Source of the DNA: Ignavibacteriota bacterium
Lineage (GTDB): Bacteria; Bacteroidota; Ignavibacteria; Tepidaquicellales; OLB5
NCBI GenBank assembly: GCA_003820375.1
Contig: RPQH01000008.1
Coordinates: 8,567 to 72,566, forward strand
Reading direction: 5' to 3'
DNA length: 64,000 nt
Made by a program: the position numbers and the translations under genes. Shown here piece after piece: positions 9,405 through 50,252 of the stretch. The first letter of the stretch is position 1. Each line of letters opens with the position of its first letter. The notes under the pieces are model-generated. The model was not told the origin of the DNA. It did no database searches and saw nothing but the letters and a program-made list of their open reading frames with translations.

Positions 9405-11702
9405 ATGATTCGCAAACAGGATGCATTAGATTACCATTCACAGGGAAGACATGGAAAAATAGAGGTTGTTTCTACTAAACCATGTGCAACTCAAAGAGAC
9501 CTGTCTTTGGCTTACACTCCGGGAGTTGCAGATCCGTGTAAAGAGATTGAAGCAAATCCGGATGATGCTTATCTGTATACTGCAAAAGGTAATCTTGTAG
9601 CAGTAATCAGTAACGGTACTGCAGTGCTGGGGCTTGGCGATATTGGAGCACTTGCAGGCAAACCTGTAATGGAAGGTAAAGGAGTTTTATTCAAAAGATT
9701 TGCTGATATTGATGTGTTCGATATAGAGCTGGACACTCATGACCCGGATGAGATAATTAAAGCTGTAAAGCTTCTTGAGCCGACATTCGGAGGCATTAAT
9801 CTGGAAGATATCAAAGCTCCGGAATGCTTCTACATCGAAGAAAAGCTGAAGGAAATTATGAAGATTCCTGTTTTCCATGATGACCAGCATGGTACAGCAA
9901 TTATAAGCGGTGCTGCTTTATTGAATTCATGTGAGATTACAAATAAGAAGATGGCTGAGATAAGAGTGGTTTTCAGCGGAGCCGGTGCTGCGGGTATTGC
10001 TTGTGCTAAGCTATATGAATCTCTTGGAGTGAAGCGTGAGAATATGATGCTTGTTGATACCAAAGGTATTGTGTACAAAGGCAGAAAAGAAGGCATGAAT
10101 AAATATAAAGAGTATTTTGCAGTTGAAACTGAAAAAAGAACTCTTGCTGATGCAATGAAGGGTGCTGATGTATTCTGCGGTGTCTCGGCTAAAGGTATAG
10201 TATCAAAAGAGATGATAAAATCAATGGCAGATTATCCTGTAGTTTTTGCAATGGCAAATCCTGACCCTGAAATTACATATGAAGATGCAACCAGTGCAAG
10301 AGACGATATAATTATGGCTACAGGACGCTCTGATTATCCAAACCAGGTTAACAATGTACTTGGATTCCCGTTCATTTTCAGGGGTGCTCTCGATGTTAGA
10401 GCAACAACTATCAATGAACCGATGAAGATTGCCGCTTCATATGCTCTTGCAAATCTGGCAAAAGAAGATGTTCCTGATTCTGTTATCCGTGTTTACGGCG
10501 GAAAGAGAATTGAATTCGGAAAGCACTATATTATTCCAAAGCCATTCGATCCGCGTGTACTGTTCTGGGAAGCTGCCGCTGTAGCAAAAGCTGCAATGGA
10601 TACAGGTGTTGCTCAGGTACCGTTAAAAGACATGGAGAAATATATTGACAGTCTTGAAGCACGTCTGGGCAAATCAAGGGAAGTTATGAGATTCTTCATA
10701 CATGAAGCACAGCACGGTCCGAAGAAGATAGTATTTCCAGAGGGTGAAGAAGACCATATCCTGCGTGCAGTACAGATTATTCTTGATGAAAAAATTGCCA
10801 AACCTATAGTACTGGGAAGCAGGACATTAATTAATGCAAGAATAAAAGAGCTTGGACTTGACCTGACAGGTGCTGAAATAATTAATCCTTCTAAATCCGA
10901 AAAGTATAACGAATATGCTTTGAAGTTCTATGATATAAGAAAAAGAAAAGGTATAACAAAAGCAGATGCCGACAGGATGACAAAGACGCATAACATTTTC
11001 GGAATGATGATGGTGCATGAAAATGATGCAGACGGTTTGATTTCAGGAGTAACACAGCATTACCCGGATACGGTAAGACCGGCATTGCAGATAATCGGTA
11101 AAGAAGATGGTGTTACAAATATTGCCGGCTTGTATATGATGGTATTCAAGAACCAGAATATTTTCATAACAGACCCGACAGTAAATATAGACCCATCAGT
11201 TGAACAGCTAGCCAGCATTGCACTACTCGCTGCTGAAAAGTTAAAGCAATTTGATATTGAACCGAGGATTGCAATGTTATCATTCAGTAATTTTGGAAGC
11301 ACAACTCACCCGCTATGCGAAAAAGTCCGTAAAGCAACAGAGCTTGTAAAGAAGATTGCCCCGGCACTTATTGTAGACGGTGAGATGATGGCTGATACAG
11401 CTACATCGACTGAAATATTGAATGATTTTTATCCGTTCTCTTCACTGCATGATAAAGCTAATTTACTTGTTTGTCCTGACCTTACATCTGCAAATATAGC
11501 TTACAAGCTGTTAGCTAATTTAGGCGGTGCTGTTGCAATCGGACCAATACTGCTTGGAATTAAAAAACCTGTTTACTTATTAGGTCCCGGTAATACTGTT
11601 AATGATATAGTAAACATTACAGCAATGGCAGTATATGAAGCACAGAGAAAGAGTACAGCATCAAAAGATACAACACGCAAGAAATTCGCGTTTTCAAATT
11701 AA
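9405..11702 (+). CDS. maeB: NADP-dependent malic enzyme (malic enzyme + PTA-like domain)
   Basis: 765-aa ORF. The N-terminal malic-enzyme/NAD(P)-binding part ([26 protein letters not shown]) is followed by a ~330-aa phosphate-acetyltransferase-like C-terminal domain. Confidence 0.9.
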
Positions 11703-11797: not shown

Positions 11798-12070
11798 ATG
11801 GAAAAAACTATATTAATAATATTAATAGGTACAAGAAAAGAATCTGCAGTAACAGTACAGCAAGTGTTAACTGCATGGGGATGTATAATTAAAACAAGGT
11901 TAGGGCTTCATGACGGAGTGCTTGAAAACTGCACAAACCAGGGCACAGTAATTTGTGAGCTTTGCGGAACAAAAGAACAGAATGAAGAACTTGCTCACAA
12001 GATTAAAGTGATACAGGGAGTTTCATCTGAGCTTGTAACGGTAGGACTGGAAGAGCCAATTAAGAATTAA
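11798..12070 (+). CDS. TM1266-like small ACT/NikR-C-like protein (putative iron-only hydrogenase system regulator)
   Basis: The ORF track starts at TTG 11765, but ATG 11798 (MEKTILIILIGTRKESAVTVQQVL..RLGLHDG..VICELCG...IQGVSSELV) matches the length and pattern of the TM1266 family as I recall it. Confidence 0.5.
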   Translation: MEKTILIILIGTRKESAVTVQQVLTAWGCIIKTRLGLHDGVLENCTNQGTVICELCGTKEQNEELAHKIKVIQGVSSELVTVGLEEPIKN

Positions 12071-12077
12071 AATCTTT

Positions 12078-12138
12078 GGAGTGCAGTAACCGTGTTACTG
12101 CTATAACATTATTTGCAGTAACACGGTTACTGCACTCC
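12078..12138. repeat. 24-bp perfect inverted repeat (likely bidirectional terminator palindrome)
   Basis: ggagtgcagtaaccgtgttactgc (12078-12101) pairs with gcagtaacacggttactgcactcc (12115-12138) across a 13-nt loop. Each arm is also a self-hairpin. Confidence 0.8.
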
Positions 12139-12144
12139 ATACAC
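12115..12144 (+). repeat. 30-bp direct repeat, left copy
   Basis: gcagtaacacggttactgcactccatacac is identical to 13501-13530. Confidence 0.9.
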
Positions 12145-12172
12145 GCTTTCCGTACTGCCAGTGTCACTTATA

Positions 12173-12204
12173 AAATAGTGAAATGGTGAAATAGTGAAAT
12201 AGTG
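12173..12204. repeat. Octamer tandem repeat (4 units)
   Basis: aaatagtg aaatggtg aaatagtg aaatagtg. Confidence 0.8.
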
Positions 12205-12287
12205 ATTAACAGGGAGTCCTGACAGACCAGAGAGATTTTCAATTAATCCAATGCTTTTTAAATCTTCAATTTCCGAAGGAGCTCGTA

Positions 12288-12351
12288 CTGCCAGTGTTTC
12301 TCCTGGATGTTTTGTAATTATAGAATTAATAAAAATCGATGACACTGGCAG
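12288..12351. repeat. Long-loop hairpin of the CTGYCAGTGT family
   Basis: ctgccagtgt (12288-12297) pairs with acactggcag (12342-12351). A third direct copy, gtactgccagtgtcac, lies at 12152-12167. Confidence 0.6.
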
Positions 12352-12816
12352 AATATGGAAGTACAGGATCCTTTGTTATTTGAAGGAGGGTTAATCATAA
12401 ATCTTATTTAATAATATTCATCACCGGTTAATTGGAGTTTTCAAGGGGTATGCTGTTAATCTCAATCTGGAGTTGTTTATAAAAATAATTACATAATATC
12501 AGTTCATAATTATATATATCAGTAACACCTTGTCTGTGTTCAATTGTAAATCCTCCATTCATCTTAAGCTGACGCTTGCCTGCCTGCCTCAGGCAGGTGT
12601 CTGGTGAATTTTTGTTAATCTAAGTTCTTTCTTTCCCTATCATATTCATCAATTAATCTAAGCTAATCCACATTGTCAAACTAACACCTGACACTGCCCT
12701 GTAATTTTTCAACCTTCCAACCTGTCATTCTTCATTAATTATGACCCCTTGACTGTCTTCAATTATCAATCTTCACCTTTGCGGTCTTAGCGGCTTGGCG
12801 TGGTGGTATATCGGCA

Positions 12817-13467
12817 AAAATTCAGAGTTGGGTTCAAAACAGTGCTAAGTTGGGTTCAAGTTGTGTCGGAGTTGGTATCAAGTTGGTATCAAGTTGGGTT
12901 ATCGTTTTTGGAAAACAGGGGTTAACTCATAGCAGTATAAGCAAATAACTCCGTCAGAAATGTGAGATTTTTGATTTAAGATTTGCGATTTTGAGCCAGA
13001 ATCGCTAATTTTTCATCAAAAAAAAAACTTCACTATATCATTAACCATTATCGCTATGGGAAAAATTTGGTAGCAAATATTTGTCGCTGTTGTTGGGGAG
13101 TTAAAGTAATACTTGAAGTTCATCCGTTTCAATTCCTGACACACCCCTTCCGCTTCGCTCCCTCCCCTCTCGAGAGGGGAATTCTTACCTCTTTATTTAT
13201 CCATGAGCTGAAATTGCTCAAAAAAGCACACTAAACACTCAATACACTCTAAGCACTCCACACACTCCAAACTATTTTTAGTTAAAACTTGACAATAAGC
13301 AATTACTATATTAAATTATACTGATAGTGCTTATATAGCTATATAAGCATAAATAACCGTTCTTTGTTAATATCGAAATGATATAAAGCATGTCGTAATA
13401 TTGTTCGAAAATGCTGCTAACGGATTTGGTTAGATTTTGGAGGGTTCAAAAAAATATGCACTGAAAA
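12817..13467 (+). repeat. ~0.65-kb non-coding repeat, copy 1
   Basis: Aligns along its length with 32584-33223 in the same orientation. The first ~470 nt are very similar by eye and the last ~170 nt are patchy. The track shows no ORF of 60 aa or more. Confidence 0.9.
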
Positions 13468-13500
13468 GTGCATATATATGTAAATCTACCTATTGTTATA

Positions 13501-13530
13501 GCAGTAACACGGTTACTGCACTCCATACAC
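13501..13530 (+). repeat. 30-bp direct repeat, right copy
   Basis: Identical to 12115-12144. It abuts the stop of the TonB-dependent receptor gene. Confidence 0.9.
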
Positions 13531-13531
13531 T

Positions 13532-15913
13532 CTACCAGCTCAATCCAATTTTTGCAAAGAAATTTCTGCCGGGTTCTTGTGTAATTGTTCCCCTGTTAGT
13601 TGATAAATGATTTCTGTATTCTTTGTCAAGAATGTTTTCTATTCCGCCATACAAATTTATTTTCACTCCGCTGAATTTGATAGGCATACTTTGTACATAT
13701 AAGTTTAGTGTAACATACCCGGGAGTTTCAACTTCGCCTGCTGCAATTTTATTTTGCCTGGCAAAAAACATTACAGAGAAATCTAAGTTAGCATATTTAC
13801 CGGCAGCAGCTTTTAATCCAATTGAACCGTTTAACGGCGGTATCTGAGGCAGGTCTAAATCGTTTTCAATATCTCTTCCTCTTACATAAGATACTGTGCT
13901 GTAAAACACAAACTTTTTGTAGAAATTATATTCAAGGTTAGCATCAAAGCCATAGAACCTGGATTTTCCGGCATTGGTCTTTATCATTGCCTGCCTGTTT
14001 TCATATGTACCCGGTATTTCAATCACCAAGTCATTTATTGTATTTAAAAAACCGCTTCCTGTAAACTTGATAACAGGATTAAACACTTTAAATCCTGCAT
14101 CCAGGAATATCCCGTTTTCCGGATTTAAATCAGGATTACCCAGTCTTACAAGGCTGCCAAGATCAATGTACTGGTATCTTTCTTCCAGCGAAGGCGAGCG
14201 GAATGAACGTGCCGCATTAAAGGTGATACTTACATCATTATATAAAGCATACATTGCACCAACATTGGCACTCCACGAAATATCATCTTCGGCTGCAGAA
14301 TTCCAAATGATTTTTTGTCCTGCCGGAGTCCAGTTCCATCCTGTATCATTGGTTATTGTATATTCGGGATTATAAGCAATGTCATTAGTCACTTTTATCT
14401 GGTCAATTCTTCCGCCGATATTTATTTTTAATTTATCTTTGAACAATCTTATTTCATCCTGTGCAAATGCCCCAATGCTCCTGTATGATGAAATCGGTAT
14501 CGGCCTCTCCCCTGTTACCTGTTTTATAGTTTTAATTACAACCGTTCCGGTCGAATCATAATCTTCAATTACCTGTTCTCTTGTTCTCCTGCTGTCGAGG
14601 TCTCTTTGCCATGCATCAAATCCTGCAATTACAAAGTTATACTTTCCCAGCAGCCAGCCCGATTGAAGTGAAAATCCTTTTGTATTGTGGTCTGCCTGCG
14701 GTTTTATGTTTAATACACTCACTTTTTTCTTTAATACATTTCCTGCATAAACCTTTTGCACAATGTGCGGAATATTTTCCACATCCCTGAAAATATACTG
14801 GTAATAAAATTTTGCAGAAACATCTTTAAGTATTTTTGAGATTTGAGATATTTTATACTCCGCACTTAACAAGCTTCTTTCTTCCTTCGGGTAAGTGACA
14901 AGAGCATTATTAGGAAATAGAGGGTACCCGCCGGGAATCCCGACATCTTTTGCAAGATAATACTGGTAATTGATTTTTATTTCATTATTCCTGAAAGGAT
15001 TAACACCGAGTACACCCGAAAAATAATTATCTTTAAAGCCGCTGTTATTAATTTCACTGTTTGGTGTTTTGATATTACCGGCTTTTCTCATTGTTCCGTT
15101 TAGCTTCAGGAACCATCTTTCGGCACCTGCATATAGAAGAAGGTTGCCGCCTGTGCTGTTGTTTACACTGTTGTAATCGCTTAATATTTTGCCGCTGAAA
15201 GTAAACTTGCCTGCATACAGATTGCTCTTTGTAATTATATTTACAACTCCGCCCAATGCTCCCGTGCCGTACAGAGATGACATACCGCCTTTGATTATTT
15301 CAATCCTCTCAATATCGTTAATATCAAAAAGTGATAACCTTGCTGATATATCCGTAGCGGTTTCTATCCTGTTGCCGTCTACAAGTGTAACAATGCTTGA
15401 ACGGTTCATTCCTCTTATGTTAATATCCGTTGCCCAGATTCCGTCCCGTGTTAATGTAACTCCTGCTTTATTTTTCATTAAGTCCGAAGCAGAAACCGGG
15501 TTTCTCTGTGTTATCTCAGAATTATCCACCACCTCAACAGGAAGCGGAATGTTTTTTAATTGTTGTTCATGTCTAAAACTTGTTACAATTATTTCGCCAA
15601 GAGTTATTGATGACTGGTCAATCTTGAATTGAACTCTCAATACTGTATCGGGCAAAACATTTAATGTAAAAGTTTCCTTCTTGTATCCAAGATAAGAAAC
15701 CATAACATCATACTTACCGGCGGGTAAATCCTGAATAAGGAAATGCCCGATTTTATCAGTAAAAACCTTATAATCCAGATTTGATATATAAATAGCTGCA
15801 TCCTGCAATCCTTGTTCTGTATTTGCATCAGTAACATTTCCGCTAATAGCGCCGGTTTGTGCATAGCCAAAATTAATCGCAAATAATAGAAATAAAATTG
15901 GAAGTATTTTCAT
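13532..15913 (-). CDS. TonB-dependent outer-membrane receptor with CarboxypepD_reg-like N-domain
   Basis: 793-aa ORF with a signal peptide. It has a carboxypeptidase-regulatory-like domain (ISGNVTD...YDVMVSYLGYK), a plug region, and a beta-barrel ending in an aromatic residue (..KIGLSW). Confidence 0.9.
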   Translation of the reverse strand: MKILPILFLLFAINFGYAQTGAISGNVTDANTEQGLQDAAIYISNLDYKVFTDKIGHFLIQDLPAGKYDVMVSYLGYKKETFTLNVLPDTVLRVQFKIDQSSITLGEIIVTSFRHEQQLKNIPLPVEVVDNSEITQRNPVSASDLMKNKAGVTLTRDGIWATDINIRGMNRSSIVTLVDGNRIETATDISARLSLFDINDIERIEIIKGGMSSLYGTGALGGVVNIITKSNLYAGKFTFSGKILSDYNSVNNSTGGNLLLYAGAERWFLKLNGTMRKAGNIKTPNSEINNSGFKDNYFSGVLGVNPFRNNEIKINYQYYLAKDVGIPGGYPLFPNNALVTYPKEERSLLSAEYKISQISKILKDVSAKFYYQYIFRDVENIPHIVQKVYAGNVLKKKVSVLNIKPQADHNTKGFSLQSGWLLGKYNFVIAGFDAWQRDLDSRRTREQVIEDYDSTGTVVIKTIKQVTGERPIPISSYRSIGAFAQDEIRLFKDKLKINIGGRIDQIKVTNDIAYNPEYTITNDTGWNWTPAGQKIIWNSAAEDDISWSANVGAMYALYNDVSITFNAARSFRSPSLEERYQYIDLGSLVRLGNPDLNPENGIFLDAGFKVFNPVIKFTGSGFLNTINDLVIEIPGTYENRQAMIKTNAGKSRFYGFDANLEYNFYKKFVFYSTVSYVRGRDIENDLDLPQIPPLNGSIGLKAAAGKYANLDFSVMFFARQNKIAAGEVETPGYVTLNLYVQSMPIKFSGVKINLYGGIENILDKEYRNHLSTNRGTITQEPGRNFFAKIGLSW

Positions 15914-16101: not shown

Positions 16102-17523
16102 ATGATAAACAATACATCAGGAAAAAGGGAATACATTCTACTTACTTTAACGGTCTGTATTGTGCATTTCCTGCTTGGATTAGACATAAATATTGTTTCT
16201 GTCTCACTGCCTACCATATCACAAAGCTTTAATATAACTCCGGCATCAGCCTCAAAAGTTGTATGGATATATTTTCTTGTGCTCACATGTTTTCTTCCGT
16301 TATCGGGAAAGCTTGGTGACCAGTTCGGATTTAAGAAGCTTTATTTACTCGGGATATTCACTTTTCTTGCAGGTGCTGTGTTATGCGGTTTGTCCACATC
16401 ATTTGAAATGCTTGTTGCTTTCCGTATTCTACAGGCAGCAGGAGGTGCAATTTTATTTTCAATCACTCCTGCAATAATTTCTTCTTATCTGCCTGAAGGA
16501 ATGAAAGGAAAAGCATTCGGAATTAATTATGCATTTGTTGCACTTGGGGGAGTAGTGGGCAGAGCTTTCAGCGGTTATTTACTCGATGCATATGGATGGA
16601 GCTCAATATTTTTTATAAATATTATTCCGGGAATTGCTGCATTAGTTCTTGCTTTAAGATATATACCATCAGTCTCTCCCTCAAATAAAAAAGTATTTTT
16701 TGATGTGCTGGGTTCAATTTATATTTTCATAGGATTATTTTTCCTGCTTTTTGCCATTAACAACGGGCAGCAAATGGGATGGATGAATCAATACATAACG
16801 ACATCGTTTATAATAGCTGCAGTATTTATATACTTATTCATTAAGAGGGAAATTGATATTCCTGCACCATTATTTAATCTGAATTACTTAAAAAAGAAAA
16901 AATTCTCGTTCCCGCTAATTTCTTTTTCAGTTGTTTACATTGTTACCAACGGAATGGTTTTTTTATTCCCCTTCTACCTGCAATGGATAAAAAGCTTATC
17001 TAAACAGGAAACCGGATTGCTTATGACTATTCCATCTGTTATGCAGATTGTAAGCGGTTTTTTTGGCGGATATTTATCAGATAAAAAAAGCATAAGGATA
17101 ATTTGTACATACGGAATTATATTAACTTTTCTTTCTTATTTATTCTTCTATTTCCTGGATTCTTCTTCTGATATATTACTCATTATTGCTTCACTATCAC
17201 TTTTCGGAATTGCAATCGGTACATTTATACCTGCCAATACAAACAGGATAATGTCTTATGCAGGAATTGAAGAAAAAGGAAGTATCTCGGCATTAATGCT
17301 GACAGTTGTTAGAACAGGCTCAGCACTTGGAGTGTGTTTTTTTGCCGCAATACTATCGGTTTATATTCCGCAGGCAAATCCAATTACAGCAAATGTTCCA
17401 ATGAACATAATGGAATCAGGTTTTAAAGCAGTGTTTCTGTTTGGAACGATAGTGTGTTTGATTGGGATATATTTTGCAGTAAGATCGGAAGAGAAAGAGG
17501 TTAATCAGTATGAGGTATTATAA
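16102..17523 (+). CDS. MFS transporter (DHA2/EmrB-like, ~14 TMS)
   Basis: 473-aa hydrophobic ORF. The motif LSGKLGDQFGFKK sits after TM2, and the length fits the 14-TMS drug:H+ antiporter class. Confidence 0.85.
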   Translation: MINNTSGKREYILLTLTVCIVHFLLGLDINIVSVSLPTISQSFNITPASASKVVWIYFLVLTCFLPLSGKLGDQFGFKKLYLLGIFTFLAGAVLCGLSTSFEMLVAFRILQAAGGAILFSITPAIISSYLPEGMKGKAFGINYAFVALGGVVGRAFSGYLLDAYGWSSIFFINIIPGIAALVLALRYIPSVSPSNKKVFFDVLGSIYIFIGLFFLLFAINNGQQMGWMNQYITTSFIIAAVFIYLFIKREIDIPAPLFNLNYLKKKKFSFPLISFSVVYIVTNGMVFLFPFYLQWIKSLSKQETGLLMTIPSVMQIVSGFFGGYLSDKKSIRIICTYGIILTFLSYLFFYFLDSSSDILLIIASLSLFGIAIGTFIPANTNRIMSYAGIEEKGSISALMLTVVRTGSALGVCFFAAILSVYIPQANPITANVPMNIMESGFKAVFLFGTIVCLIGIYFAVRSEEKEVNQYEVL

Positions 17524-28520: not shown

Positions 28521-30287
28521 ATGGAGACAGATTTATTTATGAAAAGTTTCATCTTTTCACTGTTTATAATATTTATATATTCTATTCAATTTTATTGCCA
28601 ATGGCAACCGGATGTAAGATTAACAAATAATAATTATGGTTCCGGTACGTCTATAAACAATGCCAAAAATATAGCTTCTTATGGAAATATTATACATGTT
28701 GTTTGGAATGATGGACGTAATGGTTATGATGATATATATTATAAACGCTCAACAAATAGTGGTCTAAACTGGGGGGAAGACATAAGATTAACTACTGATC
28801 CAAACAGCTCACAGGGAGCTTCAATAGCTGTATCTAACCAATACGTGCATGTTGTATGGAGAGATTATAGAGATGGACATCATGAAATATATTATAAACG
28901 TTCAATCGATGGAGGTATAACATGGCAAACAGATGTTCGACTAACTAACACATTGTACGATTCTATGGATCCCTCTTTAGCATTATTGGATTCAGTCCTG
29001 CATGTAGTTTGGCACACTAATCGTGATGGAGGTCTGGAAATTTATTATAAAAAATCAACAAATAATGGGGTGAACTGGGGGGCAGATAATAGATTAACAA
29101 ACAATTCAGCAATTTCAGCCTATCCTTCAATTGTAGCATATGGTTCATATGTTCACGTTGCATGGTATGATGAACGTGACAATAATAAGGAGATATATTA
29201 TAAAAAATCAACCAATACCGGTATAAATTGGGAATCTGACTTAAGACTAACCTATGACACAGCGAACTCGATGTATTCATCTATATCAGCGTCAGGCAAT
29301 AACATCTTTGTTGCTTGGGGTGATAATAGAAATGGGAACTATGAGATATATGGTATAAAGTCGACCAATAATGGCATTAACTGGTCAAATGATATTAGGT
29401 TAACTAATAATTCCAGTATCTCCAATTTTCCCAATATTGTAATTTCAGATAATATTTTTCATGTCGTGTGGCATGATTTCAGGGATGGAAATTACGAAAT
29501 ATATTATAAACGATCTACTAGTGCCGGTTTAAACTGGGAGTCAGATTACAGGTTAACAAATGCTTCTGATATTTCAGAATTTGCATCAGTATGCTTATTA
29601 AATACATCTGTAAATATAGTTTGGATGGATTATAGGGATAATAATCCGGAAATTTATTATAAACAAAACCCAACAGGTAATATAATAGTGATACCGCCAC
29701 CTGCACCAAATCTTATAGCTCCTCTAAATAATTCGACCGGACAATCATTAACACCATTGATGGATTGGGGAGATGTAACAAGCGCTATAAGTTACAGAAT
29801 CCAGATAACAACAACTGATTCTACAGCATTTTCAACAACAGTTTTTGATTCAAGTGGTATTACATCATCACAAGTTACAGTACCTTCAGGAAAACTTCAA
29901 AATAATACAAAGTATTGGTGGAGAGTTAATGCTCAAAATGCAGCAGGTGCCGGTCCGTGGTCAGTTGTTTGGAATTTTAGAACATTATTTTTAGGAATAG
30001 TAAAGGATAATGAAATACCTAAAGAATTTAAGCTATATCAGAATTATCCAAATCCCTTCAATCCAACAACACAAATTGAGTTTTCTATTCCCAAAAACAA
30101 TATTCATGTCAATATAATAGTATATGATGTATCAGGAAAAATTGTATCTATATTAGTAAATGAAAAACTAAATGCAGGTACTTATAAAGTAGATTTTAAT
30201 GGAGAAAGTTTAGCAAGCGGGGTTTGTTTTTACAAACTGGAAACTGAAGGATTTGTTGAGACGAAAAGAATGGTAATTTTAAAATAA
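28521..30287 (+). CDS. Secreted BNR/Asp-box repeat protein with FN3-like and T9SS C-terminal sorting domains
   Basis: 588-aa ORF with a signal peptide (probable start M7 at 28539). About 7 repeats of YYK[RK]S.N.G.NW follow, then a C-terminal NYPNPFNP..YDVSGK T9SS domain. Confidence 0.8.
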   Translation: METDLFMKSFIFSLFIIFIYSIQFYCQWQPDVRLTNNNYGSGTSINNAKNIASYGNIIHVVWNDGRNGYDDIYYKRSTNSGLNWGEDIRLTTDPNSSQGASIAVSNQYVHVVWRDYRDGHHEIYYKRSIDGGITWQTDVRLTNTLYDSMDPSLALLDSVLHVVWHTNRDGGLEIYYKKSTNNGVNWGADNRLTNNSAISAYPSIVAYGSYVHVAWYDERDNNKEIYYKKSTNTGINWESDLRLTYDTANSMYSSISASGNNIFVAWGDNRNGNYEIYGIKSTNNGINWSNDIRLTNNSSISNFPNIVISDNIFHVVWHDFRDGNYEIYYKRSTSAGLNWESDYRLTNASDISEFASVCLLNTSVNIVWMDYRDNNPEIYYKQNPTGNIIVIPPPAPNLIAPLNNSTGQSLTPLMDWGDVTSAISYRIQITTTDSTAFSTTVFDSSGITSSQVTVPSGKLQNNTKYWWRVNAQNAAGAGPWSVVWNFRTLFLGIVKDNEIPKEFKLYQNYPNPFNPTTQIEFSIPKNNIHVNIIVYDVSGKIVSILVNEKLNAGTYKVDFNGESLASGVCFYKLETEGFVETKRMVILK

Positions 30288-32583: not shown

Positions 32584-33223
32584 AAAATCAGAGTTGGGTT
32601 CAAAACAAGTCGGAGATGGGTTAAAGTTGTGTCGGAGTTGGGTTCAAGTTGGTATCAAGTTGGGTTATCGTTTATCAAAAACAGGGGTTAACTCATTGCA
32701 GTATAAGGAGATAACGCCGTCAGAAATGCGAGATTTTTGATTTAAGATTTGCGATTTTGAGCCGGAATAGCCAATTTTTCATCAAAAAAAAACTTCACTA
32801 TATCATTAACCATTATCGCTATGGGAAAAATTTGGCAGCAAATATTTGTCGCTGATGTTGGAGAGTTAAAGTATTACTTGAAGGTATTTCCGGTTCATTA
32901 TCAAACACACCCCTTCCGCTTCGCTCCCTCCCCTCTCGAGAGGGAAATCCTTACCTCTTTATTTATCTATTGATTAAAATTGCTTAAAAAGCACTCTAAA
33001 CACTCTATACACACTAAGCATTCTATACACACCAATCTATTTTTAAATAAAACTTGACAAACACAAATATCGTAAATACATTTGTATAGTGATAAATATT
33101 ATCACTTAATACAGTTCTTTAATAATATAGAGATGGTTTACAGCATGTCGTAATATAGCTGTAAAATGATGCTCACGAATTTGGTTAGATTTTGAAATGT
33201 TGAAAAAAATATGCACTGAAAAA
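32584..33223 (+). repeat. ~0.65-kb non-coding repeat, copy 2
   Basis: Colinear with 12817-13467. It begins 88 nt upstream of the minus-strand T9SS gene start. Confidence 0.9.
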
Positions 33224-33234
33224 TACCCTAAGGA

Positions 33235-33360
33235 CAATTAGCAATGAACAATTAGCAATGAACAATTAGCAATGAACAATGAGCAATGAACAATTAGCAA
33301 TGAACAATGAACAATGAACAATAAGCAATGAACAATGATCAATGAACAATTATCAATGAA
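33235..33360. repeat. Heptamer tandem array (18 units of CAATNRN)
   Basis: caattag caatgaa alternation with variants caatgag, caataag, caatgat and caattat. Confidence 0.9.
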
Positions 33361-40765: not shown

Positions 40766-41097
40766 AATTAAAAGAATTAACAGAGAAATGCGGGCTGGAA
40801 ACCGTTAACGGCTTTGCTGATGAAAATAAAGAAATAGCCGGTGCTTATTCAAGTGACCTCCTGAGCGATGTAATTGCCAATGCAAAAAAAGATTTTGTCT
40901 GGATAACATTGCAGACTCATTTAAATATAATTGCAGTAGCAGCACTGAAAGAGCTTGCAGCTATAATAATAGTAAATAATAAAGAAATAGACAAAGATAC
41001 ATTACAAAAAGCGGAAGAAGAAAAAGTTACTCTTTTAAGAACAGGATTAAATACTTTTCAGATAAGCGGAAAAATTTATGAGTGCGGTATTCATTAA
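40762..41097 (+). CDS. DRTGG domain protein
   Basis: 111-aa ORF with the LLSDVI pattern. It is paralogous to 38640-39041. Confidence 0.65.
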   Translation: MKLKELTEKCGLETVNGFADENKEIAGAYSSDLLSDVIANAKKDFVWITLQTHLNIIAVAALKELAAIIIVNNKEIDKDTLQKAEEEKVTLLRTGLNTFQISGKIYECGIH

Positions 41098-41111
41098 AAA
41101 CAAAATGTTTA

Positions 41112-41825
41112 ATGAAAATAAAAGCAGATATCCATATTCATACATGCTTATCACCTTGTGCAGATATATTAATATCGCCAAAAAGAATAGTGGAAAAGGC
41201 ATTTAATACAGATTTAAATATGATTTTTATAACAGACCATAATTCACTTAATAATGCAGAAGCGGCAATCAAAGCTGCCCGGTATTATCCATCGCTTGCA
41301 GTTTACCCCGGTATGGAAATCACTTCAAGAGAGGAAGTTCACATACTCGGACTTTTCGGAAATATGGCTGATGCTCTAAGCACAGAAGAAGTAATTACAA
41401 CTTACCTGCCTGATGCAGTAAGTGATTCTGAATACCGTGAGCAAATCATAGCAAATGAGTTTGATGAAGTTGAAGGGTTCTGTTTAAAATCATTATTCAA
41501 TGCAGTAAATATTAAGACTGAAGATATAATAAAACTTATACACAATAATAACGGAATTGCAGCAGCGGCACATATAGACAGGCCAAGCTTTTCAATAATA
41601 AGCCAATTAGGGTTTATTCCGGATGATATAGGATTTGATGCATTGGAGATTTCACCAAACCTTGATATAGAAAAAGCAAAAGAAAAATATCCTGAATACT
41701 TAGGAAAATATAAATTCTTAAGAGGTTCCGATTCTCATTCATTGAATTGGATAGGTTCCGTTTACACTGAGTTTGAAGGTAAAAATAATACCTTTGGAGA
41801 GTTTGCACAGTATTTAATTTCCTGA
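41112..41825 (+). CDS. PHP-domain phosphoesterase
   Basis: MKIKADIHIHTCLSPC..FITDHN..AAHIDR metal-binding His/Asp pattern. The ORF track start at 41082 overlaps the upstream gene; ATG 41112 is preferred. Confidence 0.75.
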   Translation: MKIKADIHIHTCLSPCADILISPKRIVEKAFNTDLNMIFITDHNSLNNAEAAIKAARYYPSLAVYPGMEITSREEVHILGLFGNMADALSTEEVITTYLPDAVSDSEYREQIIANEFDEVEGFCLKSLFNAVNIKTEDIIKLIHNNNGIAAAAHIDRPSFSIISQLGFIPDDIGFDALEISPNLDIEKAKEKYPEYLGKYKFLRGSDSHSLNWIGSVYTEFEGKNNTFGEFAQYLIS

Positions 41826-41827
41826 TA

Positions 41828-42367
41828 ATGCAGGATATTTCATTACATATACTTGATATAGCTGAAAATTCAATCAAAGCAGGTGCAAATTTTATTGAGA
41901 TAGCGATAAACGAAGATACAGAGAAAAATTCTTTGACAATTGAAATAAGAGACAACGGAAAAGGAATGAGCAGCGAGATGGCTGCTAAAGTGAAGGACCC
42001 GTTTACAACATCAAGGACAGAAAGAAAAGTAGGTTTAGGGCTTTCACTTCTTGAACAGGCAGCAATAGCAGCAGGAGGAAAAGTAACGGTTGAATCTGAA
42101 GAAGGAAAAGGCACAACGGTAAAAGCAGAATTCATGTATGATCATATAGACAGGAAACCGATGGGAAAAATTACTGATACTCTTATTTCGTTATTATCTA
42201 ATGAAAATAATATAGATATCAAATACACTCATAAAAAGAACACAGGTGAATTTGAATTTGTCAGCACACAATTAAAAAGTTTATTAGGATTAAATTCCTT
42301 AAAAGACAGCAAAGTGTTAATTGTACTTAAAGAAATTATAAACTCCAAATTAGAAGAAATATCATAG
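41828..42367 (+). CDS. GHKL (histidine-kinase-like) ATPase domain protein
   Basis: 179-aa ORF with LHILDIAENSIKAGA (N-box), DNGKGM and GLGLSLL. Confidence 0.75.
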   Translation: MQDISLHILDIAENSIKAGANFIEIAINEDTEKNSLTIEIRDNGKGMSSEMAAKVKDPFTTSRTERKVGLGLSLLEQAAIAAGGKVTVESEEGKGTTVKAEFMYDHIDRKPMGKITDTLISLLSNENNIDIKYTHKKNTGEFEFVSTQLKSLLGLNSLKDSKVLIVLKEIINSKLEEIS

Positions 42368-42375
42368 GAGAAAAA

Positions 42376-42828
42376 ATGGAAGCTGATGTTATCGACAAAA
42401 TAATAGAGAAACATCCTAAAGAGCCATCATCAATTATACAGGTACTTCTTGATGTTCAAAGTGAACTGTATTATTTACCCGAAGATGTTCTTAAATACGT
42501 TTCCGCTGAATTAAAAGTACCTATAAGCAGAACTTACAATCTTGCTACGTTTTATAAAGCATTCAGCTTAAAGCCAAAAGGCAAACATCCTATTTCAGTT
42601 TGTACGGGTACTGCCTGTTACGTTGAAGGTGCTGATAAATTAATGGAGCAGTTTGAAAGAGAATTGGGTATAAAAGACGGGGAGACAACTGCTGACAAGA
42701 AATTCAGCTTAGAAAGTGTAAGATGTCTTGGCTGCTGCGGATTAGCACCTGTAGTAACAGTAGGCAAGAACTTACATGGCAAGCTGCCGTCTTCAAAAGT
42801 TGGTAAAATTTTAAAACAATATAAATAA
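42376..42828 (+). CDS. NuoE/HydC-like 2Fe-2S subunit
   Basis: 150-aa ORF with CTGTAC...CLGCCGLAP. Confidence 0.9.
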   Translation: MEADVIDKIIEKHPKEPSSIIQVLLDVQSELYYLPEDVLKYVSAELKVPISRTYNLATFYKAFSLKPKGKHPISVCTGTACYVEGADKLMEQFERELGIKDGETTADKKFSLESVRCLGCCGLAPVVTVGKNLHGKLPSSKVGKILKQYK

Positions 42829-42836
42829 AAAGTAAA

Positions 42837-43226
42837 ATGGCTTCAAAAATATCAATCGAAGACTTAGCCAAAATAAGGAAAGAGACATTGAGAACGATGA
42901 ACCTGAGAGAAGGTTCAGGAAAAGTTAAGATGAATGTGCATATGGGTACATGCGGTATTGCAGCAGGAGCAAGGAAAATCCTCGAGGCAGTACTGAGCGA
43001 GGTTGAAACACGCGGGCTAAATGATATAATAGTAACAAATTCCGGCTGTGCAGGGCTTTGCAGCCAGGAACCTATGATGACTGTAGAGGTCTATAACGAA
43101 CCGGCACCGGTTAAATATGTTTCTCTTACACCGGAAAAGGTTAAAAAGATTTTTGATTCACACGTTTTAAAAGGTGAAATAGTAAAAGAATATGCACTCG
43201 CTTTAGGCAGCGAGACAACGGTATAA
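42837..43226 (+). CDS. Thioredoxin-like [2Fe-2S] ferredoxin
   Basis: 129-aa ORF with MGTCGIAAGA...GCAGLCSQEP. Confidence 0.8.
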   Translation: MASKISIEDLAKIRKETLRTMNLREGSGKVKMNVHMGTCGIAAGARKILEAVLSEVETRGLNDIIVTNSGCAGLCSQEPMMTVEVYNEPAPVKYVSLTPEKVKKIFDSHVLKGEIVKEYALALGSETTV

Positions 43227-43252
43227 AGTTTTTTAACTAAAGGAGTAAATAA

Positions 43253-45079
43253 ATGGCATACAGAACATATTTAATGGTATGCGCGGGTACTGGATGTGTA
43301 GCCAATAACTCGATGAAAATTAAAGAAAAGCTGGAAGATGAATTACTTAAACGGGGAATTCATAATGAGGTCAGTGTAGTAACAACAGGATGCAACGGCT
43401 TCTGTGCTGCAGGACCTCTGATGGTTGTACAACCCGATGGAGTATTTTACCAGCTTTTAAAAGAGAGCGATATTCCACTGCTTGTAGAAGAGCATTTCAT
43501 AAAAGGACGGCCGGTAAAGAAATTAATGTACACTCCTCCCAAGGAGAAGTCGTCTATCCCGAAAATGTCAGACATCCCCTTCTTTGCTAACCAAACTTTG
43601 ATTGCATTGAAAAACAGGGGCCTGATTGACCCGGAAAAAATTGACGAATACATTGCAAGAGGCGGTTATGAGGCCCTTGCAAAAGTATTAACTACAATGA
43701 CATCTGAAGAGGTAATAAAAGAGATTAAAGATTCCGGTTTACGCGGCAGAGGAGGCGGAGGATTCCCAACAGGTATTAAATGGGAAACCTGTAAGAGAAT
43801 GGAAGCTGATACAAGGTATGTTATCTGTAATGCAGATGAGGGTGACCCCGGTGCATTCATGGATAGAAGCATTATTGAATCAGACCCTCATGCAGTTTTA
43901 GAAGGAATGTGTATAGGTGCATTTGCCATCGGTGCTTCTGACGGATATATCTATATCAGGAATGAATACCCTATTGCACTGCAAAGATTGCAGGTAGCAA
44001 TTAAGCAGGCACGTGAATACGGTCTTCTGGGGAAGAACATATTCGGTACAGATTTCAGCTTTGATGTCAGGATAGTCAGAGGAGCCGGAGCATTCGTTTG
44101 CGGTGAATCAACTGCACTCATGGCATCAATAGAAGGCAAGCCGGGCGAACCGAGAGCTAAATATGTTCATACGGTTGAAAAAGGACTTCACGATAAGCCG
44201 ACATGTCTTAATAATGTTGAGACATGGGCTAATGTTGCACAGATAATAACCAGAGGTGCTTCATGGTTCTCAAGCATAGGTACCGGAGATGTCTCCGAAG
44301 ATGCATGGGGCGGAAGTAAAGGTACAAAAGTATTTTCACTTTCAGGTAAAGTAAATAACACCGGATTAATAGAAGTACCGATGGGTATATCACTCCGCCA
44401 GATAATTTATGATATAGGCGGCGGAATAAAAGACGGAAAGAAATTTAAAGCTGTACAGACAGGCGGACCATCAGGCGGATTTATTCCTGAAAGCCTGCTT
44501 GACCTGCCGGTTGATTATGAAGAACTGACTAGAGTCGGCTCTATGATGGGTTCCGGAGGTATGGTTGTTACCGATGAGGATAACTGCATGGTTGAAATGG
44601 CAAAATATTTTCTCAGCTTCACACAGGCTGAATCATGCGGAAAATGTATTCCATGCAGGGAAGGTACAAAGAGAATGCTGGATATACTTGAAAAAATAAC
44701 AACCGGTGAAGGCACTGAAGAAGATCTTGTATTGCTTGAAGAGCTTTCATACATGGTTGTTGACTCATCGCTGTGTGCTTTAGGCGGTTCAGCACCGAAC
44801 CCGGTATTGACTACCTTAAAATATTTCAGAGATGAATACGAGACTCACGTAAGAGATAAAAAGTGTCCTGCTCACTGCTGCAAAGCTTTAATAAAGTACT
44901 CGATCGATCCGAATATATGCGTAGAAAAAGGACATGGCTGCGGTGTATGTTCAAAGAGCTGTCCTGACGGAGCAATAATAGGTGAATCAAAACAGGTACA
45001 CTATATTGACCTGATGAAATGCGGAAAATGCGGCATATGTTATGACTCGTGTAAGTTTAATGCAATTTATATTGAATAA
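43253..45079 (+). CDS. NuoF/HydB-like flavoprotein, long form (N-terminal 2Fe-2S + FMN/NADH + C-terminal 2x4Fe-4S)
   Basis: 608-aa ORF. N-terminal CAGTGC..GCNGFCAAGP, then GRGGGGFPTG and ESCGKCIPCREG. The C-terminus carries CVEKGHGCGVCSKSCP and CGKCGICYDSC. Confidence 0.9.
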   Translation: MAYRTYLMVCAGTGCVANNSMKIKEKLEDELLKRGIHNEVSVVTTGCNGFCAAGPLMVVQPDGVFYQLLKESDIPLLVEEHFIKGRPVKKLMYTPPKEKSSIPKMSDIPFFANQTLIALKNRGLIDPEKIDEYIARGGYEALAKVLTTMTSEEVIKEIKDSGLRGRGGGGFPTGIKWETCKRMEADTRYVICNADEGDPGAFMDRSIIESDPHAVLEGMCIGAFAIGASDGYIYIRNEYPIALQRLQVAIKQAREYGLLGKNIFGTDFSFDVRIVRGAGAFVCGESTALMASIEGKPGEPRAKYVHTVEKGLHDKPTCLNNVETWANVAQIITRGASWFSSIGTGDVSEDAWGGSKGTKVFSLSGKVNNTGLIEVPMGISLRQIIYDIGGGIKDGKKFKAVQTGGPSGGFIPESLLDLPVDYEELTRVGSMMGSGGMVVTDEDNCMVEMAKYFLSFTQAESCGKCIPCREGTKRMLDILEKITTGEGTEEDLVLLEELSYMVVDSSLCALGGSAPNPVLTTLKYFRDEYETHVRDKKCPAHCCKALIKYSIDPNICVEKGHGCGVCSKSCPDGAIIGESKQVHYIDLMKCGKCGICYDSCKFNAIYIE

Positions 45080-45090
45080 AGGAGAACAAC

Positions 45091-46854
45091 ATGATAAAAT
45101 TAACTATAGACGGAAAACAACTCGAGGTTTTTGAAGATACCTCTATATTAAAAGCTGCGGAAAAAGCTGGTATTTGGATACCTACTATGTGTCATTGTGA
45201 TTACATAGAACCATATGGTGTATGCCGTCTTTGCAGTGTTGAGGTGGTAAAAGGAAAAAGAAGCCGTATTGTAACTGCCTGCAACTATCCCGTCAGGGAA
45301 GGGCTTACGGTCAGAACAAACTCCGAAAGAGTAAAATGGATAAGAAAAATCATTATGGAGCTTATGCTTTCACGCTGGCCTAATGTTCCCGCTGTAAAGG
45401 AAATGGCTGAACAGCTTGGTATATCCAAACCAAGATTTGAAAGCAAAGAAAAAGATGAAGCTGAAGATGCATGTATATTATGCGGTATGTGCGTTAATGT
45501 TTGCAATGACCTTGTAGGTAAAGGCGTACTCGGATTTTCGAAAATGGGAATTGAAAGAGAAGTTGTTCTTCCTTACAATGAACGCTCGGAAGAATGTATC
45601 GCATGCGGTGCATGCGCTTATGTTTGCCCGACCAAGCATATTAAAGTTAAATCACTTGAATATGAAAGAGGAGCAATACAGGACTGGAGCCTAGCATCCA
45701 AAACTGCAATTTATGTTCCTACCATGCAGGCTGTACCAAGAGTACCGACTATCGATGAGGCATCCTGTATCAACAAGCAAACCGGCGGATGTAAAGCATG
45801 TCAAACATACTGCGAGCCGGGAGCTATAAATTATGATATGAAAGATGAAGAAATCGAGGTCGAAGTTGGACAGATACTGATTACTACAGGATACCAGCTT
45901 ATGGACCTGACAAAGATGCCGCAGTTTGGTTACGGGCGTCTTGATAATGTATATTCATCACTTGATTTTGAACATATGCTTAACTCAACCGGACCGACTA
46001 ACGGTACAATTCAGTGTAAAGACGGCTCAGTTCCAAGAGCAGTTGGTATTATTCACTGCATTGGTTCAAGAGATGAAAATTATCACAAATACTGCTCAAG
46101 AGTATGCTGTATGTATGCTCTGAAATTTGCACATCTTATTAAAGACAGAACAACAGCAGAAGTATATCAATTCTATATTGATATGAGGGCATTTGGAAAA
46201 GGGTATGAAGAATTCTACAAGAGACTGCTTGATGAAGGAGTAAACATGATAAGAGGTAAAGTCGGAGAAGTAACCGAATGCAGGGTTGACGGCGAAAAGC
46301 CATTCCTGAAAGTTGCATGTGAAGATACACTAATAGGAAAATTCAGGGAAATTCCGCTTGATATGGTAATCCTGTGTCCTGCAATAGAATCGAATGCAGA
46401 CTCATCGGATTTGAAAAAGATATTCTCAATCAGCCAGAGTCCTGATAAATTCTTCCTCGAAAGACATCCAAAGCTTGACCCGATGTCAACAATGACAGAC
46501 GGAATATTTATAGCAGGGTGTGCCCAGGGACCGAAGGATATTCCGGATTCGGTTGCACAGGCATCAGGAGCCGCAGCAAAGATATTATCACTTATTTCAG
46601 TTGGTGAAGTTGCAGTTGATCCTATCAAAGCTGAAATAGTTGAAGAACGCTGCAGCGGATGCCGTATCTGTAATAACCTGTGTCCGTACGGTGCTATATC
46701 ATATATTGATGAAAAGAAAATATCCTTCATTAATGATATGTTATGCAAAGGATGCGGAACATGTGTAGCTGCATGCCCGTCATCAGTAATTACAGGCAAA
46801 GGATTCACAGATGCACAGATAATGGCAGAAATTGAAGGCTTATTGGCTATATAA
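45091..46854 (+). CDS. Fusion protein: HydA/NuoG-type 2Fe-2S + 2x4Fe-4S N-domain joined to the C-terminal two-thirds of HdrA
   Basis: 587-aa ORF. Residues 1-~190 resemble the N-terminus of hydA in this window (IDGK..ILKAA..IPTMCH..GVCRLCSVEV; CILCGMCVNVC; CIACGACAYVCP). The rest continues HdrA exactly where 37773-38639 stops (KTAIYVPTMQAVP..C..CKACQTYC..ILITTGY..IHCIGSRD..CSRVCC..IFIAGCAQGPKDI..CSGCRICNNLCP..CKGCGTCVAACP). Confidence 0.85.
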   Translation: MIKLTIDGKQLEVFEDTSILKAAEKAGIWIPTMCHCDYIEPYGVCRLCSVEVVKGKRSRIVTACNYPVREGLTVRTNSERVKWIRKIIMELMLSRWPNVPAVKEMAEQLGISKPRFESKEKDEAEDACILCGMCVNVCNDLVGKGVLGFSKMGIEREVVLPYNERSEECIACGACAYVCPTKHIKVKSLEYERGAIQDWSLASKTAIYVPTMQAVPRVPTIDEASCINKQTGGCKACQTYCEPGAINYDMKDEEIEVEVGQILITTGYQLMDLTKMPQFGYGRLDNVYSSLDFEHMLNSTGPTNGTIQCKDGSVPRAVGIIHCIGSRDENYHKYCSRVCCMYALKFAHLIKDRTTAEVYQFYIDMRAFGKGYEEFYKRLLDEGVNMIRGKVGEVTECRVDGEKPFLKVACEDTLIGKFREIPLDMVILCPAIESNADSSDLKKIFSISQSPDKFFLERHPKLDPMSTMTDGIFIAGCAQGPKDIPDSVAQASGAAAKILSLISVGEVAVDPIKAEIVEERCSGCRICNNLCPYGAISYIDEKKISFINDMLCKGCGTCVAACPSSVITGKGFTDAQIMAEIEGLLAI

Positions 46855-46895
46855 TAAAAGATTTAAGAGAAATATAATTTAATATTCATATTATA

Positions 46896-47327
46896 ATGGA
46901 AACTCAAATAAAATCAAAAGAGAATTTTAATCCAAGGATAGTTGCCTTTCTTTGCAACTGGTGTACATACACAGGTGCAGACCTTGCAGGTGTAGCACGC
47001 ATGAAATCTTCACCAAGTGTCCGTGTAATAAGGACCATGTGCAGCGGAAGAGTTGACCCTACATTTGTTTTAAAAGCGTTCAAGATGGGAGCTGACGGAG
47101 TTATGATAGGCGGATGCCACATCGGAGACTGTCATTATTCAGAAGGTAATTTTAAAACATTGAGAAGGGTGGAATTTCTTAAGATAATGCTGAAGGATTT
47201 TGGTATTGACCCCAAAAGATTACGGCTTGAATGGATATCTGCTTCGGAAGGTGATAAATATGCTCATGTTACAAATGAGTTCGAGAAGGAACTGAGAGAA
47301 CTGGGACCATTAGTATTACAGGAGTAA
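46896..47327 (+). CDS. mvhD: MvhD/FlpD-like hydrogenase delta subunit
   Basis: 143-aa ORF with FLCNWCTY..GADLAG..CSGRVDP..GGCHIGDCHY. Confidence 0.9.
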   Translation: METQIKSKENFNPRIVAFLCNWCTYTGADLAGVARMKSSPSVRVIRTMCSGRVDPTFVLKAFKMGADGVMIGGCHIGDCHYSEGNFKTLRRVEFLKIMLKDFGIDPKRLRLEWISASEGDKYAHVTNEFEKELRELGPLVLQE

Positions 47328-47540
47328 TTCCCAAATACCAAAGCAAAGAATAATAAATAAAAATGAACCACAAAGACACTAAGCAAAAGAGAAATTGAAT
47401 TATTAAGTAAAGATGTTGAATTGATAAAAACAGTCTTACATGAACAATATTTAACTTAGCAGCTTTGTGACTTAGCAGTAAAAGATGTTTGAAAGATATT
47501 GAAATTTAAAAAATAGAAGTAAATTTAAAATTACAAAATC

Positions 47541-48527: not shown

Positions 48528-48545
48528 ACTTTATTATCTAATACA

Positions 48546-50021: not shown

Positions 50022-50065
50022 ATTTAATAACTTTACATTAACTTTTTTTGTTAATATTATAAGAG

Positions 50066-50251: not shown

Positions 50252-50252
50252 C

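Follow-up and report, generated by a model that had tools for sequence, protein, structure and literature searches.

Direct repeats around 1.36 kb of non-coding DNA in an Ignavibacteriota bacterium as copies of a REP hairpin of the RAYT kind

Background

What is the 1.36 kb of gene-free DNA that lies between two perfect 30-bp direct repeats in a genome fragment of an Ignavibacteriota bacterium, and how did it come to lie there? The fragment, referred to here as the window, is the whole 64-kb stretch of contig RPQH01000008.1 that was analysed. An initial annotation read the locus as an insertion into a bidirectional terminator palindrome, created either by target duplication around a non-autonomous element or by recombination between hairpins resembling repetitive extragenic palindromic (REP) sequences. 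Here we describe the repeats as members of a REP family that accompanies genes for tyrosine transposases associated with REPs (RAYTs). A REP cluster of a RAYT system that encloses a mosaic of non-coding repeats is the best explanation of the locus, and we give it a probability of roughly 0.6.

RAYT genes are approximately 500 bp long, related to IS200 and typically flanked by REPINs (REP doublets forming hairpins), and tandem clusters of REPINs are common (PMC3337134, PMC3116915, PMC5581495). RAYT groups have been described by Bertels et al. across many bacterial classes, with Group 4 common in Chlorobia.

Results

The direct repeats belong to a REPIN and a third REP

The 30-mer GCAGTAACACGGTTACTGCACTCCATACAC occurs exactly twice on the + strand, at 12115-12144 and 13501-13530. 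Both copies had been pointed out in the initial annotation and are confirmed by exact search, and the number of matches expected by chance is zero (100 shuffles). One further copy with 3 mismatches lies on the - strand at 12072-12101. The two exact copies stay alike over 33 nt with 1 mismatch (12115-12147 and 13501-13533). An inverted repeat had also been reported here as perfect and 24 bp long; it is real and perfect, and its length is 25 bp (12077-12101 and 12115-12139, with a 13-nt spacer). Each arm alone is an 8-bp hairpin with a 3-nt loop (GCAGTAAC-NNN-GTTACTGC), and such a single hairpin folds as DNA at -7 kcal/mol (z = -4). The doublet as a whole (12077-12139), taken as single-stranded DNA, folds at -31.4 kcal/mol (z = -12.4).

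The stretch 12077-12139 is a REPIN. Its left arm, REP-L (12077-12101, + strand), consists of a GGAGT flank and the hairpin GCAGTAAC-CGT-GTTACTGC. The 13-nt spacer TATAACATTATTT (12102-12114) separates it from the right arm, REP-R1 (12115-12144, + strand), which is the first 30-mer and reads GCAGTAAC-ACG-GTTACTGC followed by ACTCC and ATACAC. A third REP (13501-13525), oriented like the right arm and inverted relative to REP-L, lies in the second exact 30-mer, REP-R2 (13501-13530, + strand). Because the locus consists of a REPIN and a third REP, the "30-bp direct repeat" is two REP copies. REP-R1 and REP-R2 agree at 8 of 9 nt past ACTCC. REP-L pairs over a longer stretch with the distal copy (12077-12111 with 13491-13525, 34 of 35 positions or 97%), because TATAACA 3' of the left arm, the first 7 nt of the spacer, matches TGTTATA 5' of the distal copy.

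The window has three REP copies, all of them at this locus (12077-13530) and all between the stops of two convergent genes. That the 30-mer might be a REP scattered in high copy number had been foreseen in the initial annotation. Membership in a REP family is borne out, yet copies are scarce locally; because this locus holds the only ones in 64 kb, high copy number does not explain why the 30-mers occur together. The terminator reading did not survive. No T-tract follows the REPIN on either side (ATACACGC follows on the + strand and AAAGATTTTAA on the - strand) and a terminator scan does not call the palindrome, so that it is not a canonical terminator; it is a palindrome of a REP family that flanks RAYT genes.

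The REP family and its RAYT genes in other contigs

The motif GGAGTGCAGTAACNNNGTTACTGC (21 specified bases) was scanned across 185,579 species-representative genomes and found at 36 loci, against approximately 0.3 expected by chance (our own estimate). Nearly all of these are from Candidatus Scalindua or Brocadiaceae (Planctomycetota), and related genomes have several loci apiece, as with the 7 exact matches in Ca. Scalindua rubra; two contigs of a GC-rich Cytophagia metagenome-assembled genome (MAG) complete the set. A metagenome scan with a second pattern, the window's own REP variant, gave 9 loci. The comparison contigs with the 24-nt REP core (GGAGT-GCAGTAAC-NNN-GTTACTGC) are labelled L001-L036, L039-L047, L050 and L051.

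At the genome loci the doublets are laid out as a T-run, GGAGT, hairpin 1, a few nucleotides, hairpin 2, ACTCC and ATA(T). Besides the window, 28 further doublets share the inverted architecture with a short spacer. The 5' foot GGAGT/ACTCC is constant in all doublets, but it formed part of the search pattern. Hairpin 2 varies and yet pairs (ATCATC/GATGAT, ATCGAC/GTCGAT, ATTGAC/GTCAAT, ATTAAC/GTTAAT, AGTAAC/GTTACT). Across 20 distinct doublets, 23 cells show compensatory double changes, which fall on 4 of the 8 pairs; the share of paired cells is 94%, versus 23-44% in slid controls, and none of 500 shuffles reached the score. Hairpin 2 is therefore conserved as a structure and not merely as a sequence.

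In some Scalindua doublets a GC-rich hairpin of 20-40 nt is inserted between the hairpins or inside the second loop (L006 7923-8000, L014 20-108, L019 5367-5455; also L022, L025 and L034). These look like a further layer of miniature insertions. A lone long palindromic REP, in which GGAGT-hairpin-ACTCC is closed on itself, is found at L020 1979-2007. Such a closed single palindrome is reportedly explained by Bertels and Rainey as a REPIN after excision of its centre.

RAYT genes were called with the NCBIfam model NF047646 ("REP-associated tyrosine transposase", equivalog cutoff 80 bits). Four are above the cutoff: L007 (87.1 bits), L041/P0124 (93.6), L050/P0125 (84.5) and L051/P0128 (93.6). 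All four have REPs on both sides in inverted orientation, and the REP-L 24-mer is also found upstream of each. In L007 the two halves of a doublet, 590 nt apart, enclose the gene, a 184-aa open reading frame (ORF) that also matches Pfam Y1_Tnp. RAYT homologues identified by tblastn adjoin doublets in L046 and in L009+L018, a Scalindua contig where doublets stand on both sides of the homologue.

The L041 RAYT has a sole PDB relative, E. coli TnpA-REP (4ER8). Eight tandem 36-nt REPs lie directly upstream of the gene (2711-2996) and three inverted REPs after it. GenBank protein RPI13299.1, from an "Ignavibacteriae bacterium" MAG, is encoded on L041; the receptor next to the REPs of the window is RPI19109.1, also from an Ignavibacteriae MAG and in the same accession series. 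Two tandem REPs are found in L050. Behind a REPIN in L042 stand eight partial REPs of 18 nt in tandem (GTTACTGCACTCCATAAT, 10024-10176). Their ATAAT|GTTAC junctions are sharp, which hints either at slippage or at cutting and joining at specific sites.

RAYTs accompanied by the 24-nt REP core are 48-72% identical to the L041 RAYT and come from Planctomycetota (Scalindua/Brocadiaceae) and Ignavibacteriota-like contigs. The Cytophagia MAG has the REP core alone, with no RAYT in the 8-kb stretches that were read. Named RAYT homologues are also from Zixibacteria, TA06, Marinimicrobia and Patescibacteria. The shared core and related RAYTs span at least three phyla. Because the hairpin, doublet, tandem and RAYT-flanking features are those by which REPs, REPINs and RAYTs have been defined in the literature, the 30-mers of the window are with high probability copies of the REP hairpin of a RAYT system.

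Relatives keep a short gap at the orthologous site

The convergent genes that enclose the REPs are a small 90-aa gene (11798-12070, + strand; TM1266-like in the initial annotation), upstream of the cluster with its stop 7 nt before REP-L, and the TonB-dependent receptor gene (13532-15913, - strand). The TAG stop of the receptor gene is 1 nt past REP-R2, in agreement with the initial annotation that the right copy abuts it. The small gene had no match in a Pfam scan; a 90-91 aa orthologue is found at the equivalent position in contig L037 and in the contig of P0002. The outer neighbours are a gene for a malic enzyme/phosphotransacetylase fusion before the small gene and a major facilitator superfamily (MFS) transporter gene after the receptor.

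In the window 1461 bp separate the stops of the small gene and the receptor. The gap is 82 bp in L037, where the receptor is 78% identical and the gene order is the same, and it contains unrelated small hairpins and no REP. It is 27 bp in the P0002 contig (receptor 79% identical). At this level of receptor identity the local order aminotransferase, malic enzyme, small ORF, receptor, MFS is conserved. In L038, a 68% relative, the receptor gene is followed by different non-coding DNA up to the contig end. Since relatives keep the gene order with a short gap that lacks a REP, the window lineage very probably gained the REPs and approximately 1.36 kb of non-coding DNA in a gap of roughly 30-80 bp. 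The proposal that the DNA is an insertion is upheld by these orthologous gaps. An empty site consisting of the hairpin only had been named in the initial annotation as something to look for in relatives; the short gap was found, and in L037 there is no hairpin in it that belongs to the family.

On a larger scale, the hydrogenase block of the window (41082-51208) is inverted compared with L037 (1-9891) and moved from the MFS gene (16102-17523). On the MFS side (comparison stretch 17501-51208) the gene order of the window agrees with L038 instead.

The enclosed DNA is a mosaic of non-coding pieces

Rather than a single element, the 1.36 kb is a mosaic whose pieces are a 0.65-kb unit, a hairpin element of 70 nt, several short tandem arrays and, without matches, AT-rich DNA. 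The largest ORF between the 30-mers is 72 aa and the ORFs tested there had no match in a Pfam scan, which bears out the earlier statement that no convincing gene is enclosed. The octamer array and the CTGCCAGTGT motifs of the initial annotation were also found, the motifs at 12152, 12285 and 12342.

The hairpin element is approximately 70 nt long, begins with GTACTGCCAGTGT and ends with ACACTGGCAGAAT (12285-12355). Two inverted homologues are found in L050, an Ignavibacteria-like contig (4000-4069 and 4110-4178). A solo end GTACTGCCAGTGT of this CTGCCAGTGT element lies at 12152-12164 on the + strand. The octamer array consists of 4.1 tandem copies of AAATAGTG (12173-12205) and is akin to an array inside the L047 copy of the 0.65-kb unit; another short tandem array lies at 12485-12523. 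A small GC-rich hairpin, CCTGCC-TCA-GGCAGG by our reading of the letters (12583-12597), resembles the GC hairpins of the units in L048 and L049 as well as the GC-rich inserts of the Scalindua REP doublets. The stretch 12427-12555 has weak similarity, over 133 nt, to the start of L044.

No Rfam 15 family matched at the gathering threshold anywhere in the window. Rfam in E-value mode, applied to both long intergenic regions, gave only generic long-hairpin microRNA matches far below threshold, and no tRNA or tmRNA gene was found. The 1.36 kb had no blastn match among plasmids and phages, and an exact 31-mer from the 0.65-kb unit had none in viral contigs. An origin from a plasmid, phage or virus is thus unsupported.

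Short tandem arrays with periods of 7-14 nt are common in the intergenic DNA of these contigs, also beside REPs and units. Array sites are 12173-12205, 33234-33360, 56607-56633 and 57033-57063 in the window, L047 5360-5460, L044 190-290 and L041 2500-2540. The pair at 56.6-57.1 kb consists of inverted GTTAGAA arrays 387 nt apart. Longer repeats are found within ORFs elsewhere in the window. Three adjacent ORFs of approximately 520-550 aa (58931-63830, - strand) have conserved ends and internal repeats spaced approximately 153-174 nt, and a 588-aa ORF (28521-30287) has six 153-nt repeats. At a guess, these are candidate repeat-domain surface proteins.

The 0.65-kb unit is a dispersed family with a promoter-like site and a terminator-like right end

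The 0.65-kb unit belongs to a dispersed repeat family with five known copies over at least three contig sets. Copy 1 (12818-13467, + strand) lies between the REPs, and copy 2 (32584-33222, + strand) in a divergent intergenic region of the window, where it is followed by nine copies of a 14-mer. The two match at 84% identity over 653 nt, as expected from the repeat reported in the initial annotation. A third copy is found at L047 4580-5221 (76%). The L048 (5777-6433) and L049 (5521-6234) copies match over two conserved blocks at 91/82% and 85/80%, respectively, and were recovered through a protein database that was queried with a spurious ORF from the unit.

A coding origin of the unit was rejected. 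All six reading frames are closed (three copies checked), and a profile of the best pseudo-peptide found three spurious short ORFs only. An exhaustive search of 1.84 billion proteins yielded, besides a further spurious ORF, only a weak match, in five stretches, between a 22-residue query stretch and a 430-aa protein; these are no real protein relatives.

Conserved in the unit are an array with a period of 11 nt, which stands at the left end, and a nearly invariant block of approximately 100 nt. The middle is variable and modular, and the ends are imprecise. A promoter-like TTGACA-17 nt-TAAATT lies at 13289-13317 on the + strand, and its TTGACA is invariant in all five copies. The right end, downstream of the receptor gene, has a terminator-like hairpin followed by T7 on the - strand (13475-13454); the A7 run and hairpin are kept in all five copies. 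In three of the five the predicted promoter is directed into a convergent gene and not towards a gene start. A structured RNA downstream of the promoter is unsupported, the RNAalifold consensus being -8 kcal/mol with an unfavourable covariation term. A 53-nt block (12750-12802, + strand), which marks a long form of the unit, is common only to copy 1 and the left flank of the L049 copy.

The same unit is bracketed by REPs at a second, unrelated locus

In L047 the unit is also bracketed by REPs, at 4477 and 5318. Both point the same way, and the orientation of the REPs relative to the strand of the unit is the same in L047 and in the window. The L047 site is between the convergent ends of a 1038-aa and a 415-aa ORF, a gene context unrelated to that of the window. 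The 1038-aa ORF is read as a putative type I restriction enzyme R subunit, and the 415-aa ORF looks like a putative aminotransferase of the 2-amino-3-ketobutyrate CoA ligase type. In approximately 118 kb of DNA chosen without regard to REPs (L037, L038, L048, L049 and the remainder of the window) we counted one REP locus. With so low a density, the bracketing of the unit at two unrelated loci is unlikely to be due to chance.

The link may be indirect, because the spacers between REPs and unit differ at the two loci and three of the five units have no REP nearby. For the same reasons the unit spreads without needing REPs, and the block of REP, unit and REP has not moved as one conserved piece. 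A candidate for a third case of enclosed cargo, the L013 doublets 1.1 kb apart, was discarded, as ordinary genes (SWIB, DUF2442) lie between them.

Discussion

A proposed capture of the mosaic within a REP cluster

The order of events, the enzyme responsible and the way in which the mosaic came between direct REPs are inferred as follows. A REPIN would have landed in the short intergenic gap, and its right-hand REP would then have been duplicated, as often occurs in tandem in this family. Local REP duplication is typical of the family, as in the tandems of L041, L042 and L050. One of REP-R1 and REP-R2 appears to derive from the other, and they do not appear to be separate arrivals, because they share 8 of 9 nt past the core. 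The mosaic may then have been placed by REP-by-REP recombination or strand exchange with a REP-carrying donor DNA, which could have been homologous or catalysed by a RAYT on single-stranded hairpins. Alternatively, it may have been built by successive insertions into a REP tandem. We propose the specific route of capture only tentatively and at somewhat less than even odds. The initial annotation's suggestion of recombination between REP-like hairpins was right about the kind of repeat; the route from such hairpins to a captured mosaic is our reconstruction.

Several observations limit this explanation or weigh against it. The window has no RAYT gene (tblastn with the L007 and L041 RAYTs), the association of REPs with RAYTs being known from related contigs, and it has one REP locus only in 64 kb. 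The spacers between REPs and unit are unrelated, 678 and 33 nt in the window versus 78 and 96 nt in L047. Three of the five units lack a REP or a remnant of one within 500 nt, the best matches there being at the level of shuffled sequence. The flanks of the REPs also give conflicting clues: the palindromy of the inner flanks (TATAACA/TGTTATA) suggests REP-L and REP-R2 as the original partners, whereas the identity of the outer flanks suggests that REP-R1 and REP-R2 are duplicates, and the two clues imply different insertion registers. No intermediate with only a REPIN or only a REP tandem was found among relatives, of which the nearest have 78-79% protein identity; because they are so distant, the order of events was not observed.

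Alternative origins of the locus

The mosaic could instead have been built up alone, with REPs or REPINs inserted later and separately at both edges beside the gene ends, so that the direct repeat would merely be two members of one REP family. REPs of this family do lie directly past stop codons in L047 (the left REP), L042 and L044, and separate insertion would account for the wholly different spacers at the two loci and for three units without REPs. However, independent insertions do not provide the 8 of 9 nt that REP-R1 and REP-R2 share past the core, and at approximately one REP locus in 118 kb a chance bracketing at two loci is improbable. We consider this origin unlikely, although it is the strongest of the alternatives.

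A bolder idea is that direct REP pairs define a translocatable cassette, in which a RAYT or REP recombination moves the 0.65-kb module with its promoter and terminator, a situation loosely comparable to integron cassettes at attC sites. We regard this as improbable. If it were true, REP-RAYT systems would shuffle regulatory DNA besides copying themselves, and the movement of regulatory DNA would be an added function for a system that is usually seen as a self-contained, vertically inherited passenger.

In another reading, given slightly less credence still, the segment from REP-R1 to REP-R2 is a non-autonomous element of the IS200/IS605 type with the hairpins as its left and right ends, and promoter-bearing non-coding cargo moves between REP sites through single-stranded cutting and rejoining. 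At two loci unrelated to each other, members of one cargo family do stand between REPs in the same orientation, and the orientation of these to the unit is preserved. RAYTs are HUH/Y1 enzymes related to the IS200 transposases that act on flanking hairpins (PMC3116915, PMC3337134), as the Y1_Tnp match of the RAYT illustrates, and the sharp junctions of the partial REP tandems in L042 suggest site-specific cutting and joining. However, the REP-cargo spacers are unrelated and unequal, REPs are not needed for the spread of the cargo, as three of its five copies show, and no circular or excised form was seen. In addition, the literature presents RAYTs as domesticated genes, found in single copy, which move REPINs and not cargo (PMC5581495).

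A RAYT gene might once have stood between REP-L and REP-R2 and since have been lost or replaced. Their inverted arrangement with a 35-nt pairing mirrors the REP-RAYT-REP order of L007, L041, L050 and L051. However, tblastn with the L007 and L041 RAYTs gave only noise in 12145-13500 and in the whole window, and the region holds identifiable non-coding repeats instead, which makes a decayed RAYT locus very improbable.

Finally, classical insertion of a non-autonomous transposon resembling a miniature inverted-repeat transposable element into the right arm of a terminator hairpin, with a 30-bp target-site duplication as first proposed, would explain ORF-free DNA between perfect direct repeats and an empty site in relatives, but we reject it as the least credible origin of all, because the ends of the insert (12145-13500) have no terminal inverted repeats, the only inverted repeats being the REPs; the supposed target is a REP unit that many genomes possess on its own, whose family elsewhere makes tandem arrays with no insert, and that is absent from the empty sites of relatives, which lack the hairpin; at least four repeat modules unrelated to one another make up the mosaic of the insert; and 30 bp is far above the approximately 2-14 bp of usual target duplications.

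Comparison with known systems

The enclosed DNA invites comparison with three other systems. Like IS200/IS605 elements and their ORF-less derivatives, the palindrome-associated transposable elements (PATEs), the segment has end hairpins in the same orientation and no terminal inverted repeats, and the related transposase family acts on single-stranded hairpins. It differs from them in containing no transposase, TnpB or guide RNA (Rfam without a match); moreover, the distances between hairpin and cargo are not conserved, the cargo is also found without hairpins and no target tetranucleotide was identified.

REP-mediated rearrangements offer another parallel. In Salmonella, tandem duplications with REPs at the join point were reportedly described by Shyamala et al. 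in 1990. As in these rearrangements, REPs stand at both borders of the gained segment and the repeat of approximately 30 nt has the length of a REP. Unlike the Salmonella duplications, the DNA gained in the window does not repeat neighbouring genes; it is a mosaic of dispersed non-coding repeats.

Reused or "putative mobile" promoters have been reported in prokaryotes (PMC3575422). The 0.65-kb unit is similar to these in being a highly similar intergenic sequence with a sigma-70-like predicted promoter and unrelated neighbouring genes. It differs in being much longer than a promoter, and three of five copies aim into a convergent gene.

The closest match is with the REP/REPIN-RAYT systems, for which the bacterial interspersed mosaic elements (BIMEs) and TnpA-REP of E. 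coli and the REPINs of Pseudomonas fluorescens are the references (Nunvar 2010, Bertels & Rainey 2011, Ton-Hoang 2012, Messing 2012). As in these, the repeat is a short extragenic hairpin with an apparently conserved 5' flank, here GGAGT. The inverted doublets with a short spacer can be folded as a long hairpin or "clover", tandem clusters are formed, and presence and absence alternate at orthologous sites. The family flanks an HUH/Y1 transposase gene of approximately 550 bp that passes the REP_Tyr_transpos model and matches 4ER8. The arms of the REPIN in the window have identical hairpins, whereas those of the Scalindua doublets differ. In this the Scalindua doublets are like E. coli BIMEs with their Y and Z REPs.

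There are also differences. The hosts here are Ignavibacteriota and Planctomycetota and not the Proteobacteria of these references; the foot is GGAGT and not the GTAG of E. coli; and the local density is lower than in textbook REPs, with one locus in 64 kb. Whereas REPs are generally regarded as specific to a lineage, an identical 24-nt core is found here across phyla. The presence of this core with related RAYTs in at least three phyla, and of a 0.65-kb unit bracketed by REPs at two unrelated loci, could be of interest for the study of REPINs. In an uncultivated Ignavibacteriota lineage, the identification also guards against annotating such repeats as a transposon footprint or a terminator. 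The locus is of a known kind, REP/REPIN-RAYT, in phyla where this kind has been little described.

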